A DNA stretch of 64,000 bases from Narcine bancroftii (Eukaryota). A program made the translations under genes and the position numbers. Positions 22,980-53,944 of this stretch are shown here, piece after piece (the stretch's first letter is position 1; each line of letters starts with the position of its first letter). The notes under the pieces are model-generated. The model did not search any database. It had not been told where the DNA came from and saw only the letters and a program-made list of their open reading frames with translations. Where the stretch lies: assembly GCF_036971445.1 (NCBI RefSeq), contig NC_091479.1, positions 74,276,001-74,340,000 of the forward strand. The letters run 5' to 3'.

Positions 22980-23092
22980 TTAAAGGCTGAAGTCGAAGTT
23001 GAGATCAGATTTTCCCATCTTCTGTTTGAAAACAGCATCAAATTTCTCATTCATTGATACAGTGAAGATATCCTTCCATAGGCCAACTCGAA
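22980..23092 (-). CDS. SULT4A1: Sulfotransferase 4A1, exon 7 (last coding exon, ends TAA)
   Basis: aatttcag|(V)RVGLWKDIFTVSMNEKFDAVFKQKMGKSDLNFDFSL*; 113 nt. Confidence 0.95.
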
Positions 23093-25064
23093 CTGAAATT
23101 TCAAAAAGAAATAAGTGCAACTTTAAATTCAGTTTGATGTGTTTCCTGAAGTTTAAGGTTAGAGACAATTGAATTTGAATCAAGGAGCTGCAGGCAACAC
23201 AATGATTCTGAGATCGTTACAAAATACATCATCATAATTGGATTGAAGTATGTCATGAGAGAAGAAGGCTGCAGAAGCTGTGATTGTAGCAAAAACACCA
23301 AAATGCTGGAGGAACCCAGCTGGTCAGAAGGATGTCATTACCAACTATGGCAATCAGGTTCAGAAGTAACAAAGAATGCCACCTTGGTTACTCTATGATC
23401 TCCTTTAATGTCCAATTTCTGGGAAAGATACAATTTTACAATCTGAAATAGTTTAGTGATACAGTGATAGATCCACTTTAAGTTGCAATATTAGAAGATA
23501 AATAGGTATAAATTAAATTGCACAGCTAAATTATTCAGTCAACCATATTATTCATTTGTAATCTTATCCACCAATTAATAGGAGATGGATGCAGAATAGC
23601 AGTTTAGTGTGTTCTGACCTTTAAACATGTTCTCAGTAATCTGTATTGTCCACTAAACTTTGTGTACTTTTAAGATATATCAAGGGTGAAGAATACAAGG
23701 TCTGCTAGCTGAACAGACTTTGAAGTCTATTGTTAGAGATACAAACATGGAAGCAGGCAGAAACTTGATTTTGGGAGTATAACCTGCAGTCAAACAAGAT
23801 GCCAAGATTGATCAGCATTGGTTCAGAAATGAAACACAGAAGTATCTTGCATTCAAGAGTGCCAAAAGCAACAGACAGGTTAAAGAGAATAAAAAGTGAT
23901 TACTCAAAATGGTTTAAAAAAAAACACATTCTTTTGAGGAAAAAGTTAAAAGTTGGATCAGTAGTTTACAACAAGGGAATTAGAGATATACCCAAGGTAG
24001 GGAAAATATAATGGCAAATGTTGGGCCCATATGCAGAAGTTCTATTGACTAATTTATTAGAATTTTGTATTTTGAAAACTGGAGGCAAGTCTTGTAGACA
24101 AAATGAGCATGAGGGGGACAAAGGGGGAATATTTTGCAGCCTATTTTTTTTAAAAAAACACAAATGTAGTATTGGTGGACAAAATGTGAAGGAGAATATT
24201 TCTATATGATAATTGGTCATTTTTGTCAGATTTGTTTTTAATAATCACATTTAACCTGCATTACCATTCATTTGAAATTGTCAGATTTGATCTTGCAGAA
24301 GGCAATGGAAAATAAAACCATTGGTGAAGAAAGAAATATTGACCACTGAATCCTCCAGATTGTTAGTTGGCTGTTCCAAACTATTAAAAAATTATTTATT
24401 TTAATTTTCACATTCAAAATAAATTTTGACTGGCAGAGCAATACAGCACAGGAACAGACCTTTCTGCCCACCATGTCTGTGCCAACCATGATGTCAATCT
24501 ATCTTCCTGCTTAGAGTCTGTATCCGTCCATTCCCTGCTTGTTCATGTGTCTATCCAGTTGCCTTGTAAATGCTGATATTGTATCTACTTCTACTGCATC
24601 CTCTGGCAGCCCTGACTCCATTCCTCAATGGATCCTTTCGTCACATGCTTTCCTTAATTATCCATTACATTCGAAGAATTTAAAATAAGGGGCCTCATTC
24701 GTGCAGCAGGATGCTGTCACCAGACAGAAGATAGAATTAAATCAAGAAATTGTGATTCAGTGGTGGCAAAATTAGGTTTTAACATCTTCAAAACTTGTCG
24801 AAGGAGGGAACTGAGTGAATGAAGGAAGTTTGATGGCCTGCAAAGGATGAGTTGGTGGATGCAATTCAACTATCACACAGAAAAGAGAATGAGGAACATA
24901 TATACTTCTGCAGTTAGAATTTAGCAGCAATGAAGGGGAAGAGGAAAAGCATGTGTATCAAGTGATGCAAGGAGTTAGTTATCCATTTTAAATTAATTTC
25001 CTTTAATCAAATGCAGAAATTAAACTGAAGAAATATGCGATTAATCAAGAATTGCAATACCCAC

Positions 25065-25171
25065 CTTGCTGCAATCTATCTGCCTGTGGGTTTAGATGAA
25101 AAGCCATAAAAGAAGAGCATAATGCTACCTTCTCACCAATTATACTGTCTTCAGTTCAATGAGTTGAAATG
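25065..25171 (-). other. SULT4A1: Candidate stop-containing cassette exon in SULT4A1 intron 6
   Basis: Very strong polypyrimidine acceptor (ttttgttttttttttcctttttgtttttag); donors AAG|gtagca (25129) or AAG|gtgggt (25065); in-frame TAA at 25142-25140. Confidence 0.5.
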
Positions 25172-26325
25172 CTAAAAACAAAAAGGAAAAAAAAAACAAA
25201 ATGCTTCAAACAAATTAAAAAAAAACTCAAAATGCAAATGAATGCGCAGCAATTTAACTTAAATATTTTTATCCAATGGTTCCTCTTGATAATTTTATTG
25301 CTATAGTTCACATCTATGCAAAACTGAATATTAATATAGTGAAAACAATGAATACAACCGAAAATATGAAAATGCCAAACACTTCAATAATTGTTAAAGC
25401 CTTTATCACTTTATCCTATGGAGATATAGTTTAACTAAATTTATGTAGATCAATCATGGCCTCTTTGAAAAATAAAGCATCCAGGAAGATACAACTGGAA
25501 ACATGCGTCTTGGTTAATATGTCCAATTTACTTAAAATTAGAAAAGTATGTTTTTAAAGCTCATGCAGTGAAGTCATATTTTGAATTCCAATGCATCCAG
25601 CAGGATAATTGGGATGAACTGATGGGTTTGTAAGAAAGAAGTGGTTGAAGGGAGTCAAGGGAAGGAAATGAACTGATTGTGTGCTCCAAGAGCAAGGATA
25701 AGCTCAGTGAGCCATGTGGCTTCTTTCTGCATCATACAAGAAAGAGGTGAAAATGTGCATAGTGGCATTTCATGGAGGCTTTGAGTATGAAAGATTTAAA
25801 CAAACAAATAACCAGAACACTCTTATATGTGATGTTCCACCATTCTTGACAGTGATGACACAAGAGGATACAAGTTGGAGAATGAACTGGGAATCTATCG
25901 GGGTGGAGGGGGGGGAAAGAAGATGACAAGAACCTGGGGAGAAGATCCAAGTGAAATTCAGCAGGGAATATGGATGAGTCGCTTGGTAACCATGGAGAAA
26001 AAAATTCATAGGGTTTAATTGACAGCCAGGCTTGAGCGACAGCAGTTTCATGCTCTTTAACTAACTCCAAGACAGGTTCAGCTCCCTGCTTAGGTCCTGT
26101 TTCATTGTTGGTATCCCTCGCCACTCAAGGGCTTCATACACGTGGCAAAGTTTCAGACACGATGTAGAAATAATGACTGCATGCAAAGTAAATCTTCAGG
26201 CGTTACATATACACAAACCAAACTGAAAACTCAGCAACAATTTTTCTATCCACAAAAAGTGTCAGCACCTTGCAACCAAAAGGTTAACTTGTGCAATAAC
26301 ATGTCCCAGACAGTGGTTACATTAC

Positions 26326-26464
26326 CTCTCCCAATGGGAAGAGCTTCTGCATTACAGCACTGATCCACAAGCTGATGACAATGTTCAATTATAGCCTCCA
26401 TTTGAGTTTTATCGTACGTCACTCCAAGAAACCGGACCAAGAGTTCCACAGTCCTTGCAAGATT
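26326..26464 (-). CDS. SULT4A1: SULT4A1 exon 6 (139 nt)
   Basis: NLARTVELLVRFLGVTYDKTQMEAIIEHCHQLVDQCCNAEALPIGR; ag/gtaat boundaries. Confidence 0.95.
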
Positions 26465-26689: not shown

Positions 26690-27020
26690 TGGTCTTTGCC
26701 AATAACATTAACAGGAAGGGTTAACTGCAATAAGATGAATATTTTTCCACGTATACAATATATTTTTCAAACCTCACCAATACAACTTCCACAAAAGTTT
26801 TTTTTTTCCCAAGAACTAAATAAACATGTATGGAAATTTGGAAAGGTAAAATGTCAAGAGTTTCTATCGAAAGATTAACATAGAAATATGAATCAGGCAG
26901 TTTGCAGCTTCCTAATTTTAAGAATTATTATCAAGTGGCTCAAATGAGATTTCTTACCTTTTATTGAGGGTTCAGGAGTTGAATGAAATAGGAGAGAAAT
27001 TAGCAGAGGATGGTATAAAC
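26690..27020 (+). mobile_element. L1-like LINE ORF2 internal fragment
   Basis: LPITLTGRVNCNKMNIFPRIQYIFQTSPIQLPQKFF and LQLPNFKNYY motifs typical of fish-type L1 ORF2. Confidence 0.8.
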
Positions 27021-27798
27021 ATGGACTTCACTGCTTTCCATTAAACCTACTTGCCTTTTCTTCCCCCTCCCGCATTTCCTGCATTTCCAGTTCTTTCAGA
27101 TACACAGCCCTGCCTTTCCAACCGCCCCAGTTCTGCTGCCCCTCCCTCCCTTCACCACCTATTATCTCCTGCCCTGCCACCCACTTATTTTAACGCTCAC
27201 TGGCATTTTCTCATACTTTGATGAAGGGCTGAAGCCTGAAAAGTTGGTTATGTATCTCTGCCTTTGCTACATGAAGGACACTGTTTGACCTGCTGAGTCT
27301 CCTGCATTCTGTGTTTTTACTGTGGGATACCAGTGTGTGAATCCACCCATCTATTTTCTTCTTTCTTTTCTCTTCTTCATATAACTATACATCTCATTTA
27401 TAACTTTTGTACAGCTTTTGTGTAGGAGCAAGGGTAAGAGTGGGGTAAAAACAATCATGTAACCATTGTAATTTTTTAAAAACTTAATCAAAACTTTTAA
27501 AAAAATTAATCAGATGTATTGAAATTTTTTTAAAATATTAAAAATATTGGATAAAGAATTAAAAGGATAAACCTTTCCATGCATACATTTTGAAATGTAA
27601 TTATATGAGCATGTTTAAGGACTTTACTGGACAGTCTTTGAGCACTTTGGAGAAAAAGCAAGAACTAAAACAAGTTGGCTTGCTCTTGATAGATACTAGC
27701 ATGTGTTTGATGGACATAATAGGCTCCTACACTTGAACAATTCAATAATTTTAAGTGGTTTTCATCCCAGCCAAAGTAGCGATGAACACAAGTCTCAC

Positions 27799-27893
27799 CT
27801 TGTGTAAATCTTCATAAAGCAGGAAGAGGACATTGGAGTCCATGCGATGTTCCCAGAATTCTTGAACATGTTCAAACCATGATCCATAACCCA
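27799..27893 (-). CDS. SULT4A1: SULT4A1 exon 5 (95 nt)
   Basis: tttccag|(L)GYGSWFEHVQEFWEHRMDSNVLFLLYEDLHK|gtgaga. Confidence 0.97.
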
Positions 27894-47358: not shown

Positions 47359-48237
47359 CCCAAATTTTAAAGGAACCTTTGATGACAATGGGACATAATA
47401 ATAATTTGACAGGAAGAACATGGTAATTTAAACAATCTTAATCCAGTTTGTCAAAATGTTAAAAGGATGGCATTTCACACAAATGTCTGGGTTGCATTTA
47501 GAAAATAAGGGTCAGGCTGTAGCTGAGTTCATTTTGTCTCACTGGGAAGGGTCTGGAGTTTCACAAAAAGATCACTGCCATTTAAGTTTCAATGTATTTC
47601 AGATGTCAAAGAGGTGACGATACTCATTGCCAATCTCCAAATCCTGGCCCTAACTTGTTTTTGTGGTCCTGATCTGGGTCTGGCTCGAGTCAACCAATTT
47701 CACATTGAAAATGGAAGACATCAAGTGGTATCGGCTAGTCCACATTACAGCCCACAGCATTGTAGCGCTGCCACTTGAGCAGACCCTCGGGGAGCGAGGG
47801 AGCGGAGATGCAGAGCTCCCGCGGGGTCCAGCCGCTCAGTCGACTGCCGTCCACTGCACACAAACTTTAAACAGCCCGTTGAGGGAGCCAACGGTGGTTT
47901 TAGTTAAAATCCCACGGCCGCAGGTCTGCGCCCAAGACGGCAGCACCTATTAATCGGCAGCAGCCATGAGGGGCTGCAGACTCCAGGGAAGCGGAGGCCT
48001 GGAGCAGGGCACACCCTTTCTGAGAGAGAGAATTTGAGAAGACGACCTGCGGGTTTCAGTGACCACGGCAGCGAACCAGTGAGGGGGCTCTGTGGCTGAG
48101 GGACTAGTGCATGTGGCAGGCTGCTGGCAACTTGAGGAGGTGAGGAACCCATGGAAACCGTGAGCTTCTGGAGAGTGCAGACACTCGGTATCTCGGTGGG
48201 GGTTGGGGGGGGGATGAAGACGGACAGGACTCTTGCT

Positions 48238-51200
48238 TCCGTCTCCCTCTCTCCGTCTCCCTCTCTCCGTCTCCCTCTCTCCGTCTCCCTCTCTCCGTCT
48301 CCCTCTCTCCGTCTCCCCTCTCTCCGTCTCCCTCTCTCCGTCTCCCTCTCTCCGTCTCCCTCTCTCCGTCTCCCTCTCTCCGTCTCCCTCTCTCCGTCTC
48401 CCTCTCTCCGTCTCCCTCTCTCCGTCTCCCTCTCTCCGTCTCCCTCTCTCCGTCTCCCTCTCTCCGTCTCCCTCTCTCCGTCTCCCTCTCTCCGTCTCCC
48501 TCTCTCCGTCTCCCTCTCTCCGTCTCCCTCTCTCCGTCTCCCTCTCTCCGTCTCCCTCTCTCCGTCTCCCTCTCTCCGTCTCCCTCTCTCCGTCTCCCTC
48601 TCTCCGTCTCCCTCTCTCCGTCTCCCTCTCTCCGTCTCCCTCTCTCCGTCTCCCTCTCTCCGTCTCCCTCTCTCCGTCTCCCTCTCTCCGTCTCCCTCTC
48701 TCCGTCTCCCTCTCTCCGTCTCCCTCTCTCCGTCTCCCTCTCTCCGTCTCCCTCTCTCCGTCTCCCTCTCTCCGTCTCCCTCTCTCCGTCTCCCTCTCTC
48801 CGTCTCCCTCTCTCCGTCTCCCTCTCTCCGTCTCCCTCTCTCCGTCTCCCTCTCTCCGTCTCCCTCTCTCCGTCTCCCTCTCTCCGTCTCCCTCTCTCCG
48901 TCTCCCTCTCTCCGTCTCCCTCTCTCCGTCTCCCTCTCTCCGTCTCCCTCTCTCCGTCTCCCTCTCTCCGTCTCCCTCTCTCCGTCTCCCTCTCTCCGTC
49001 TCCCTCTCTCCGTCTCCCTCTCTCCGTCTCCCTCTCTCCGTCTCCCTCTCTCCGTCTCCCTCTCTCCGTCTCCCTCTCTCCGTCTCCCTCTCTCCGTCTC
49101 CCTCTCTCCGTCTCCCTCTCTCCGTCTCCCTCTCTCCGTCTCCCTCTCTCCGTCTCCCTCTCTCCGTCTCCCTCTCTCCGTCTCCCTCTCTCCGTCTCCC
49201 TCTCTCCGTCTCCCTCTCTCCGTCTCCCTCTCTCCGTCTCCCTCTCTCCGTCTCCCTCTCTCCGTCTCCCTCTCTCCGTCTCCCTCTCTCCGTCTCCTCT
49301 CTCCGTCTCCCTCTCTCCGTCTCCCTCTCTCCGTCTCCCTCTCTCCGTCTCCCTCTCTCCGTCTCCCTCTCTCCGTCTCCCTCTCTCCGTCTCCCTCTCT
49401 CCGTCTCCCTCTCTCCGTCTCCCTCTCTCCGTCTCCCTCTCTCCGTCTCCCTCTCTCCGTCTCCCTCTCTCCGTCTCCCTCTCTCCGTCTCCCTCTCTCC
49501 GTCTCCCTCTCTCCGTCTCCCTCTCTCCGTCTCCCTCTCTCCGTCTCCCTCTCTCCGTCTCCCTCTCTCCGTCTCCCTCTCTCCGTCTCCCTCTCTCCGT
49601 CTCCCTCTCTCCGTCTCCCTCTCTCCGTCTCCCTCTCTCCGTCTCCCTCTCTCCGTCTCCCTCTCTCCGTCTCCCTCTCTCCGTCTCCCTCTCTCCGTCT
49701 CCCTCTCTCCGTCTCCCTCTCTCCGTCTCCCTCTCTCCGTCTCCCTCTCTCCGTCTCCCTCTCTCCGTCTCCCTCTCTCCGTCTCCCTCTCTCCGTCTCC
49801 CTCTCTCCGTCTCCCTCTCTCCGTCTCCCTCTCTCCGTCTCCCTCTCTCCGTCTCCCTCTCTCCGTCTCCCTCTCTCCGTCTCCCTCTCTCCGTCTCCCT
49901 CTCTCCGTCTCCCTCTCTCCGTCTCCCTCTCTCCGTCTCCCTCTCTCCGTCTCCCTCTCTCCGTCTCCCTCTCTCCGTCTCCCTCTCTCCGTCTCCCTCT
50001 CTCCGTCTCCCTCTCTCCGTCTCCCTCTCTCCGTCTCCCTCTCTCCGTCTCCCTCTCTCCGTCTCCCTCTCTCCGTCTCCCTCTCTCCGTCTCCCTCTCT
50101 CCGTCTCCCTCTCTCCGTCTCCCTCTCTCCGTCTCCCTCTCTCCGTCTCCCTCTCTCCGTCTCCCTCTCTCCGTCTCCCTCTCTCCGTCTCCCTCTCTCC
50201 GTCTCCCTCTCTCCGTCTCCCTCTCTCCGTCTCCCTCTCTCCGTCTCCCTCTCTCCGTCTCCCTCTCTCCGTCTCCCTCTCTCCGTCTCCCTCTCTCCGT
50301 CTCCCTCTCTCCGTCTCCCTCTCTCCGTCTCCCTCTCTCCGTCTCCCTCTCTCCGTCTCCCTCTCTCCGTCTCCCTCTCTCCGTCTCCCTCTCTCCGTCT
50401 CCCTCTCTCCGTCTCCCTCTCTCCGTCTCCCTCTCTCCGTCTCCCTCTCTCCGTCTCCCTCTCTCCGTCTCCCTCTCTCCGTCTCCCTCTCTCCGTCTCC
50501 CTCTCTCCGTCTCCCTCTCTCCGTCTCCCTCTCTCCGTCTCCCTCTCTCCGTCTCCCTCTCTCCGTCTCCCTCTCTCCGTCTCCCTCTCTCCGTCTCCCT
50601 CTCTCCGTCTCCCTCTCTCCGTCTCCCTCTCTCCGTCTCCCTCTCTCCGTCTCCCTCTCTCCGTCTCCCTCTCTCCGTCTCCCTCTCTCCGTCTCCCTCT
50701 CTCCGTCTCCCTCTCTCCGTCTCCCTCTCTCCGTCTCCCTCTCTCCGTCTCCCTCTCTCCGTCTCCCTCTCTCCGTCTCCCTCTCTCCGTCTCCCTCTCT
50801 CCGTCTCCCTCTCTCCGTCTCCCTCTCTCCGTCTCCCTCTCTCCGTCTCCCTCTCTCCGTCTCCCTCTCTCCGTCTCCCTCTCTCCGTCTCCCTCTCTCC
50901 GTCTCCTCTCTCCGTCTCCCTCTCTCCGTCTCCCTCTCTCCGTCTCCCTCTCTCCGTCTCCCTCTCTCCGTCTCCCTCTCTCCGTCTCCCTCTCTCCTCC
51001 GTCTCCCTCTCTCGTCTCCCTCTCTCCGTCTCCCTCTCTCCGTCTCCCTCTCTCCGTCTCCCTCTCTCCGTCTCCCTCTCTCCGTCTCCTCTCTCCGTCT
51101 CCCTCTCTCCGTCTCCCTCTCTCCGTCTCCCTCTCCGTCTCCCTCTCTCCGTCTCCCTCTCTCCGTCTCCCTCTCTCCGTCTCCCTCTCTCCGTCTCCCT

Positions 51201-53609
51201 CTCTCCGTCTCCCTCTCTCCGTCTCCTCTCTCCGTCTCCCTCTCTCCGTCTCCCTCTCTCCGTCTCCCTCTCTCCGTCTCCTCTCTCGTCTCCCTCTCTC
51301 CGTCTCCTCTCTCCGTCTCCCTCTCTCCGTCTCCCTCTCTCCGTCTCCCTCTCTCCGTCTCCCTCTCTCCGTCTCCCTCTCTCCGTCTCCCTCTCTCCGT
51401 CTCCCTCTCTCCGTCTCCCTCTCTCCGTCTCCCTCTCTCCGTCTCCCTCTCTCCGTCTCCCTCTCTCCGTCTCCCTCTCTCCGTCTCCCTCTCTCCGTCT
51501 CCCTCTCTCCGTCTCCCTCTCTCCGTCTCCCTCTCTCCGTCTCCCTCTCTCCGTCTCCCTCTCTCCGTCTCCCTCTCTCTCTCGCTCCTCTCTCCGTCTC
51601 CCTCTCTCCGTCTCCCTCTCTCCGTCTCCCTCTCTCCGTCTCCCTTCTCCGTCTCCCTCTCTCCGTCTCCCTCTCTCCGTCTCCCTCTCTCCGTCTCCCT
51701 CTCTCCGTCTCCCTCTCTCCGTCTCCCTCTCTCCGTCTCCCTCTCTCCGTCTCCCTCTCTCCGTCTCCCTCTCTCCGTCTCCCTCTCTCCGTCTCCCTCT
51801 CTCCGTCTCCCTCTCTCCGTCTCCCTCTCTCCGTCTCCCTCTCTCCGTCTCCCTCTCTCCGTCTCCTCTCTCCGTCTCCCTCTCTCCGTCTCCCTCTCTC
51901 CGTCTCCTCTCTCCGTCTCCCTCTCTCCGTCTCCCTCTCTCGTCTCCCTCTCTCCGTCTCCCTCTCTCCGTCTCCCTCTCTCCGTCTCCCTCTCTCCGTC
52001 TCCCTCTCTCCGTCTCCCTCTCTCGTCTCCCTCTCTCCGTCTCCCTCCCGTCTCTTCCGTCTCCCTCTCTCCGTCTCCCTCTCTCCGTCTCCCTCTCTCC
52101 GTCTCCCTCTCTCCGTCTCCCTCTCTCCGTCTCCCTCTCTCCGTCTCCCTCTCTCCGTCTCCCTCTCTCCGTCTCCCTCTCTCCGTCTCCCTCTCTCCGT
52201 CTCCCTCTCTCCGTCTCCCTCTCTCCGTCTCCCTCTCTCCTCTCCCTCTCTCCGTCTCCCTCTCATCCGTCTCCCTCTCTCCGTCTCCCTCTCTCCGTCT
52301 CCCTCTCTCCGTCTCCCTCTCTCCGTCTCCCTCTCTCCGTCTCCCTCTCTCCGTCTCCCTCTCTCCGTCTCCCTCTCTCCGTCTCCCTCTCTCCGTCTCC
52401 CTCTCTCCGTCTCCCTCTCTCCGTCTCCCTCTCTCCGTCTCCCTCTCTCCGTCTCCCTCTCTCCGTCTCCCTCTCTCCGTCTCCCTCTCTCCGTCTCCCT
52501 CTCTCCGTCTCCCTCTCTCCGTCTCCCTCTCTCCGTCTCCCTCTCTCCGTCTCCCTCTCTCCGTCTCCCTCTCTCCGTCTCCCTCTCTCCGTCTCCCTCT
52601 CTCCGTCTCCCTCTCTCCGTCTCCCTCTCTCCGTCTCCCTCTCTCCGTCTCCCTCTCTCCGTCTCCCTCTCTCCGTCTCCCTCTCCCTCCCCTCTCTCCG
52701 TCACCCTCTCTCCGTCTCCCTCTCTCCGTCTCCCTCTCTCCGTCTCCCCTCTCTCCGTCTCCCTCTCTCCGTCTCCCTCTCTCCGTCTCCCTCTCTCCGT
52801 CTCCCTCTCTCCGTCTCCCTCTCTCCGTCTCCCTCTCTCCGTCTCCCTCTCTCCGTCTCCCTCTCTCCGTCTCCCTCTCTCCGTCTCCCTCTCTCCGTCT
52901 CCCTCTCTCCGTCTCCCTCTCTCCGTCTCCCCTCTCTCCGTCTCCCTCTCTCCGTCTCCCTCTCTCCGTCTCCCTCTCTCCGTCTCCTCTCTCCGTCTCC
53001 CTCTCTCCGTCTCCCTCTCTCCGTCTCCCTCTCTCCGTCTCCCTCTCTCCGTCTCCCTCTCTCCGTCTCCCTCTCTCCGTCTCCCTCTCTCCGTCTCCCT
53101 CTCTCCGTCTCCCTCTCTCCGTCTCCCTCTCTCCGTCTCCCTCTCTCCGTCTCCCTCTCTCCGTCTCCCTCTCTCCGTCTCCCTCTCTCCGTCTCCCTCT
53201 CTCCGTCTCCCTCTCTCCGTCTCCCTCTCTCCGTCTCCCTCTCTCCGTCTCCCTCTCTCCGTCTCCCTCTCTCTCCGTCTCCCTCTCTCCGTCTCCCTCT
53301 CTCCGTCTCCCTCTCTCCGTCTCCCTCTCTCCGTCTCCCTCTCTCCGTCTCCCTCTCTCCGTCTCCCTCTCTCCGTCTCCCTCTCTCGTCTCCCTCTCTC
53401 CGTCTCCCTCTCTCCGCTCCTCTCTCCGTCTCCTCTCTCCGTCTCCCTCTCTCCGTCTCCCTCTCTCCGTCTCCCTCTCTCCGTCTCCCTCTCTCCGTCT
53501 CCCTCTCTCCGTCTCCCTCTCTCCGTCTCCCTCTCTCCGTCTCCCTCTCTCCGTCTCCCTCTCCTCCGTCTCCCTCTCTCCGTCTCCCTCTCTCCGTCTC
53601 CCTCTCTCC
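48238..53609. repeat. 5.4-kb tandem array of the 14-bp unit GTCTCCCTCTCTCC (~380 copies)
   Basis: Read directly; runs into the N gap. Confidence 0.98.
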
Positions 53610-53610
53610 A

Positions 53611-53810
53611 NNNNNNNNNNNNNNNNNNNNNNNNNNNNNNNNNNNNNNNNNNNNNNNNNNNNNNNNNNNNNNNNNNNNNNNNNNNNNNNNNNNNNNNNNN
53701 NNNNNNNNNNNNNNNNNNNNNNNNNNNNNNNNNNNNNNNNNNNNNNNNNNNNNNNNNNNNNNNNNNNNNNNNNNNNNNNNNNNNNNNNNNNNNNNNNNNN
53801 NNNNNNNNNN
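53611..53810. other. Assembly gap (200 N)
   Basis: Run of N; the round length suggests a placeholder of unknown true size. Confidence 0.99.
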
Positions 53811-53944
53811 TTAGGACTAGGGTTAACCATTAAACATTTCACTTATGCACTTAAGAAATTTTCTCAAAATGTGAACTGAATTCCAAACTCAAAACATCAA
53901 TCTTCATAATATGTCAAAACTTAATAATGAAAGGAATGAGCGAT

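Follow-up and report, generated by a model that had tools for sequence, protein, structure and literature searches.

The SULT4A1 locus in the ray window

The window, i.e., the whole stretch of 64,000 nucleotides from Narcine bancroftii that was analysed, carries exons 2–7 of SULT4A1 on its minus strand, at about 35737, 29941, 28830, 27893, 26464-26326, and 23092. The gene encodes a highly conserved orphan protein of the brain; its loss is lethal in mice, and it lies in the Phelan-McDermid region (PMC11275347). By tblastn, the per-exon identity of exons 2–7 to a shark protein is 84–97%. The peptide of exon 6 matches the N. bancroftii RefSeq model XP_069758390.1 at 100% identity; this model represents the skip form, as it does not contain the 107-nt exon described below. 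The codon at the exon 6/7 junction (26326 plus 23092-23091) encodes Val, whereas the remaining 143 of 144 canonical records carry Gly there; its exon-7 bases are confirmed by the contigs of sets X1–X3. Contigs of the 3′ UTR reach at least 22300.

Searches for exon 1 found it neither in the window nor in genome G000, and the RefSeq model P0001 has an unrelated N-terminus. Above exon 2 lie a 5.7-kb, purine-rich simple repeat (about 48107-53842) and an N gap (53611-53810), and exon 1 may be located in this assembly gap beside the repeat. On the 3′ side of SULT4A1, EFCAB6-like exons are found at 12648-12505 and 3846-3709 on the minus strand, a gene order that is also the human one.

The features between exons 5 and 7 are as follows:

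27799..27893, minus strand: SULT4A1 exon 5, spliced to exon 6 in contig sets X1–X4
26326..26464, minus strand: SULT4A1 exon 6, 139 nt, ending in phase 1; located by tblastn against shark SULT4A1 and spliced in X1–X4
25172..25203, minus strand: acceptor of the cassette exon with its U-rich polypyrimidine tract and AG, used in X1–X3
25065..25171, minus strand: poison cassette exon of 107 nt, likely orthologue of human exon 6p; both joints lie on one contig in X1, X2, and X3, and 7 of 9 amino acids of the tail agree with the whale shark
25140..25142, minus strand: premature stop codon TAA, taken from the sequence, 75 nt before the last exon junction
25123..25136, minus strand: two candidate donors inside the exon, following 25137 and 25129, neither among the listed joints
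25059..25064, minus strand: 5′ splice site GTGGGT that is in use; the bird-type exon of contig L013 shares this hexamer
22980..23092, minus strand: coding portion of exon 7, including the dimerization motif KxxxTVxxxE (PMC4079325), untranslated upon inclusion

Interspersed repeat fragments in introns 5 and 6 (26693-27456, 23255-23445, and 24401-24591) show very deep contig cover, which stems from other copies.

From the letters alone, the initial annotation had proposed a truncating cassette exon with an exceptionally strong acceptor in intron 6. The coordinates proved right: the last base of the acceptor AG is 25172 and the first of the exon 25171, the two donors follow 25129 and 25065, and the flanking boundaries are 26326 for the end of exon 6 and 23092 for the start of exon 7. 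The strength of the acceptor was borne out as well. By pyrimidine content, it ranks first among the 368 YAG sites on the minus strand between 36000 and 22300, with 19 pyrimidines in 20 positions (17 of them T), compared with 13–16/20 for the annotated acceptors (the exon-2 position was one base off). In addition to the two donors already proposed, a third candidate follows 25137 and would give a 35-nt form.

Reading past the last G of exon 6 adds ten residues before the TAA at 25142-25140. As annotated, this stop lies 75 nt from the end of the 107-nt exon, i.e., farther ahead of the last exon junction than the 50 nt which serve as a criterion for alternative splicing coupled to nonsense-mediated decay (AS-NMD). 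The early stop deprives the inclusion form of exon 7 with its dimerization motif. A search of genome G000 gave no further true copy of the exon; the second match there is the pyrimidine tract.

Inclusion and skipping in RNA-type contigs

Four contig sets, from four of the five runs listed, were compared with the window. X1–X3 stem from three runs of one study on organism A, and X4 stems from another study on the related organism B. None is recorded as RNA, and this nature was judged by behaviour: as all four contain GT..AG joints and have a depth of 0 in the intron bins 25547-26310, they behave as RNA.

The 107-nt exon is real and spliced in. One contig each in X1, X2, and X3 joins 26326 to 25171 and 25065 to 23092, with 0 letters differing from the window and depths of 15.4, 31.4, and 14.5, respectively. 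Both junctions that the initial annotation had named for checking were thus found on single contigs. In X4, a contig with a depth of 23.9 joins 26326 to 23092 and skips the exon; over ~780 nt of exon 7, it differs from the window by 26 other letters and 34 gap letters. The cassette exon is therefore seen with both ends spliced, and its skip form comes from a different organism. Neither organism gave both forms, as inclusion was seen in organism A only and skipping in organism B only.

No skip joint is among the listed joints of X1–X3, and neither the 43-nt nor the 35-nt form is among those of X1–X4, rare forms being dropped by assembly. Of the two donors proposed before, the one giving 107 nt is seen spliced, and the 43-nt form, which had been expected to escape NMD, found no joint in its favour. 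Since assembled contigs lose rare forms and give no inclusion rate, we took them as evidence of presence only.

For comparison, the four runs were also mapped to a complexin gene of G000, probably CPLX1/2-like and usable as a neuronal marker, across its last exon and 3′ UTR. Complexin contig depth was 271 in X4, 15–22 in X1, 3–8 in X2, and 16–35 in X3, where depth measures expression poorly, the tissues are unrecorded, and the organisms differ. The high depth in the skipping run fits neural skipping and is a weak hint; the inclusion runs X1–X3 hold complexin transcripts, too. In the complexin gene (L009:3104-6668), the last exon spans ~3.5 kb, and its 3′ end agrees within 8 nt between organisms A and B.

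UGCU, UCAU, and UGCAUG motifs near the exon had been noted as possible regulatory elements. They are present, but their counts are at background, so that they do not support a regulatory argument. The 100 nt upstream of the exon contain 1 YGCY and 1 YCAY, and the intron average of the gene is 1.01 and 1.96 per 100 nt, respectively. Intron 6 (3233 nt) contains 2 TGCATG (25567-25562 and 26185-26180) versus about 1.6 expected. Enrichment of MBNL, CELF, or RBFOX motifs was not found in these two stretches.

Related tails in other vertebrates

Sharks and rays split ~250–300 million years ago. The RefSeq isoform X2 of the whale shark (XP_048464035.1), a computed gene model that was compared as protein only, adds a nine-residue tail to exon 6 and then stops, and 7/9 residues of this tail are identical to the ray. 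At best, the two tails match in 24/26 nt, a value equalled by 0/7115 other AG sites of the window. The conservation across species which is looked for in an AS-NMD poison exon is thus found in the ray and whale shark tails.

The 58-aa insert of catshark isoform X1 was rejected because it is uninformative: its best match to the ray (13.8 versus a null maximum of 12.5, 24 segments) falls on the low-complexity pyrimidine tract. Further lineage-specific tails arising from intron 6 (P0005, P0160, P0263-P0265, P0122, P0126, and P0047) include this in-frame catshark insert, a galliform DFSPAP-type, and a mammalian VL-type. The Ovis model P0047 terminates with the 6p tail, so that an alternative acceptor may lie upstream.

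We sorted 384 SULT4A1 proteins, which are related gene models and not independent samples, by the sequence following exon 6. Canonical exon 7 follows in 193 of them, a tail starting with Gly (mostly intron read-through) in 75, and some other tail in 26; 39 are without a recognisable exon-6 end. Truncated tails from the same junction number 26 in mammals (AHCLFA-type), 11 in birds and snakes (AH*, AY*, AC*), 13 in teleosts (VHG/AHG-type), and 1 in sharks. The teleost tails are taken from gene models, and their exon may be cassette or terminal. Among the few records listed for lamprey, hagfish, coelacanth, gar, chimaera, and frog, a matching tail was not found. The stop comes after 2 residues in birds and snakes, after 9–10 in sharks, and mostly after 13 in mammals. 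Lineages thus differ in where and in which frame the stop occurs but retain the junction, so that selection would act on the stop and not on the peptide; judged by these sequences, it is the early stop that appears to be conserved.

A scan of metagenomes yielded the bird-type genomic contig L013, which spans the whole of intron 6. Its genomic sequence alone predicts an exon of 130 nt that reads AH*, with a U-rich acceptor and the donor GTGGGT, the hexamer of the ray. A TGCATG lies inside this exon (L013:5492-5497); the nearest one in the ray is ~390 nt upstream of the exon. With one 1-nt shift, the bird-type exon DNA matches four mammalian tails at 25–28/35, and 0/997 controls reach this level in each case. 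For the other tails, the number of controls scoring as high among 997 was 0 for tuna, 1 for carp, 19 for darter, 61 for catfish, 565 for paddlefish, and 570 for the whale shark, which is not above the null; three unrelated control tails gave 65, 658, and 791. The matches to tuna and carp would place this exon type on both sides of the bony-vertebrate split. A degenerate mammalian-6p pattern had 0 matches in the metagenome contigs and thus yielded no mammalian 6p DNA, and contig L012 contains no such exon within the only ~1 kb of intron present. Contig L014 is a spurious match.

The ray exon was compared with amniotes in anchored tests, which overlap in information and use a nine-codon window picked after viewing the tails. 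Four non-primate mammal tails match the ray at 18–19/26 without gaps (3–20 of 7115 AG sites as high), and the tails of human, orangutan, and marmot match at 16–17/26 (46–161 of 7115). A mammal-only profile reaches 19/26, equalled by 24/7087 sites, and an amniote profile reaches 21/26, equalled by 7/7087. Over its whole length, the ray exon scores 34 against the bird exon, versus 12.2 ± 7.6 in shuffles (4/1000). With the donor included, 9/4203 length-matched and 1/1664 GC-matched pseudo-exons score as high against the bird exon; in this test, the best donor for the ray acceptor is the true 107-nt donor. If exon length is left free, 204/6978 pseudo-exons match the bird exon equally well. The first 30 and 36 nt of the ray and bird exons are not significantly similar (323/7116 and 630/7115), five teleost tails do not match the ray above the null, and the match to the paddlefish tail is marginal (297/7115).

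Blind alignment gave no such result. With blastn and Smith-Waterman on the whole ray and bird introns 6, the exon was missed and the best matches lay elsewhere, and a MAFFT pair alignment of the introns put the acceptors out of register. The similarity between ray and amniotes is thus modest and visible only in the anchored tests (p about 0.001–0.03). The ray shares the in-register pattern A..L[FI]..KT with mammals, and the CTGAAGA core and donor hexamer of the ray recur in the bird. From these sequence comparisons, common ancestry of the ray exon with mammalian 6p is likely.

Proposed role, rival explanations, and known systems

Exon 6p is treated as a pseudo-exon or as inappropriate splicing in the human literature (PMC11275347, PMC4079325, PMC12137872). 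The picture given of it in the initial annotation, a truncating exon between exons 6 and 7 that is mainly non-neuronal and controlled by MBNL/CELF, agrees with the same sources. The human variant is reported for all tissues tested except brain, lung, and cervix; it dominates in non-neural tissue and drops upon neuronal differentiation, and its protein is unstable and undetected in cells (PMC4079325). Exclusion of the exon is promoted by MBNL1/2 and CELF1/2 in human cells and mouse tissue (PMC12137872, citing Idris 2019). With cycloheximide, the human exon (127 nt), classed as NMD_in, has a delta-PSI of +0.34 (FDR 3e-13). For the mouse exon (129 nt), the value after Upf1 knockdown is +0.11, and its class is nonNMD in one table and NMD in another (PMC13078869 supplement).

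In our view, the 107-nt exon is a cassette exon between exons 6 and 7 that probably represents the cartilaginous-fish orthologue of human 6p and likely acts as an off-switch outside neurons. The core of the initial annotation, a truncating cassette exon paralleling human 6p, is supported by the splicing in X1–X3 and the whale shark tail. By analogy with humans, the strong U-rich acceptor would drive default inclusion. The >50-nt rule and the human and mouse data suggest that the included message would be an NMD substrate and that any truncated protein would be unstable. Neurons would repress the exon and so make the full-length protein, as the human findings and one weak hint in the runs suggest. 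As for the origin, the tails and one bird-type intron point to a single exon in the jawed-vertebrate ancestor, which lived over 400 million years ago. With moderate confidence, we extend this to the claim that exon 6p is a single neuron-specific off-switch which the common ancestor of all jawed vertebrates already possessed. Selection for the early stop would have preserved it in rays, sharks, teleosts, snakes, birds, and mammals, even as its sequence drifted too far for blind alignment to recognise.

Another possible regulator is PTBP1. In row 7928 of PMC13078869 supplement file 3, the mouse Sult4a1 exon carries a 1 in the column “Linares et al., 2015”. This data set is reportedly one on PTBP1.

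The initial annotation had left two origins side by side, an exon dating to the jawed-vertebrate ancestor and convergence. For the latter, a poison exon would have arisen in intron 6 of sharks and rays independently of amniote 6p, with the same working. The failure of the blind intron alignment, the null results of the ray-teleost and bird-shark tests, the unequal exon lengths (107 versus 127–130 nt), and the unrelated alternative tails which intron 6 gives in some lineages (the 26 other records) speak for this. Against an independent origin stand the in-register pattern shared with mammals (24/7087), the core and donor hexamer shared with the bird, and the matches of the bird DNA to the tuna and carp tails. 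Hence, we consider convergence unlikely, and the balance leans to common ancestry, though in the anchored tests only.

The exon could also be conserved but without neuronal regulation in the ray, such that inclusion in most or all tissues dampens or disables SULT4A1. The lack of a skip contig in X1–X3, the Val at the exon 6/7 junction codon, and the failure to find exon 1 in the genome search are consistent with this. Yet contigs lose minor forms, the related organism B produces the skip form, and the RefSeq model with the identical exon 6 skips the exon. Moreover, exons 2–7 are intact at the shark-protein identities given above, and the human variant is likewise dominant in non-neural tissue (PMC4079325). 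This reading is improbable. We regard it as most improbable of all that the included form is a functional short protein whose tail peptide is itself conserved. The 7/9 residues common to ray and whale shark would suit such a protein, but the tails of birds and snakes comprise just two residues, a 1-nt shift separates the bird DNA from that of mammals, and the human variant protein is unstable and undetected in cells (PMC4079325).

If our preferred reading of an inherited off-switch is true, the age of exon 6p, which papers see as a mammalian pseudo-exon and which largely sets the neuron restriction of SULT4A1, would be extended to the jawed-vertebrate ancestor. The exclusion of SULT4A1 protein from non-neurons would then be an old, selected feature. 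It would also provide a poison exon that is deeply conserved although its gene encodes no splicing factor and that is invisible to ordinary alignment, as well as a phylogenetic handle on cis-elements and regulators, with zebrafish or chick as test systems. In the literature covered, no description of the exon outside mammals was found; subscription journals, bioRxiv supplements, and splicing databases (e.g., VastDB) lie outside this coverage, and the latter two may list the event in non-mammals. A search of 12 of the 13 supplement files of PMC11188260 gave no match. What is new is the spliced ray counterpart; the type of mechanism is known already, and RefSeq lists such isoforms without comment.

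Compared with human and mouse 6p, the ray exon has the gene, the intron, and the phase in common. In both, a stop-bearing cassette exon precedes the last junction, the dimerization motif is lost, the tail starts with Ala, and the first nine codons are partly similar in register. In contrast, 6p has 126–129 nt and a 13-aa tail, whereas the ray exon has 107 nt and a 10-aa tail. MBNL/CELF control, a tissue switch, and an NMD response are reported for human 6p, while the ray exon is known from contigs and sequence and is not accompanied by enriched MBNL/CELF/RBFOX motifs. The whale shark isoform X2 resembles the ray in its truncation after exon 6 and its 7/9 identical tail, but it is known from a computed model and not from DNA or spliced contigs.

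The poison exons of SRSF3 and TRA2B serve autoregulation. Like the ray exon, they are stop-bearing cassette exons kept over long evolutionary time (PMC13228269). Unlike these ultraconserved exons (PMC13228269), the ray exon has drifted beyond blind DNA alignment, resides in an enzyme-like gene, and is likely a cell-type switch.
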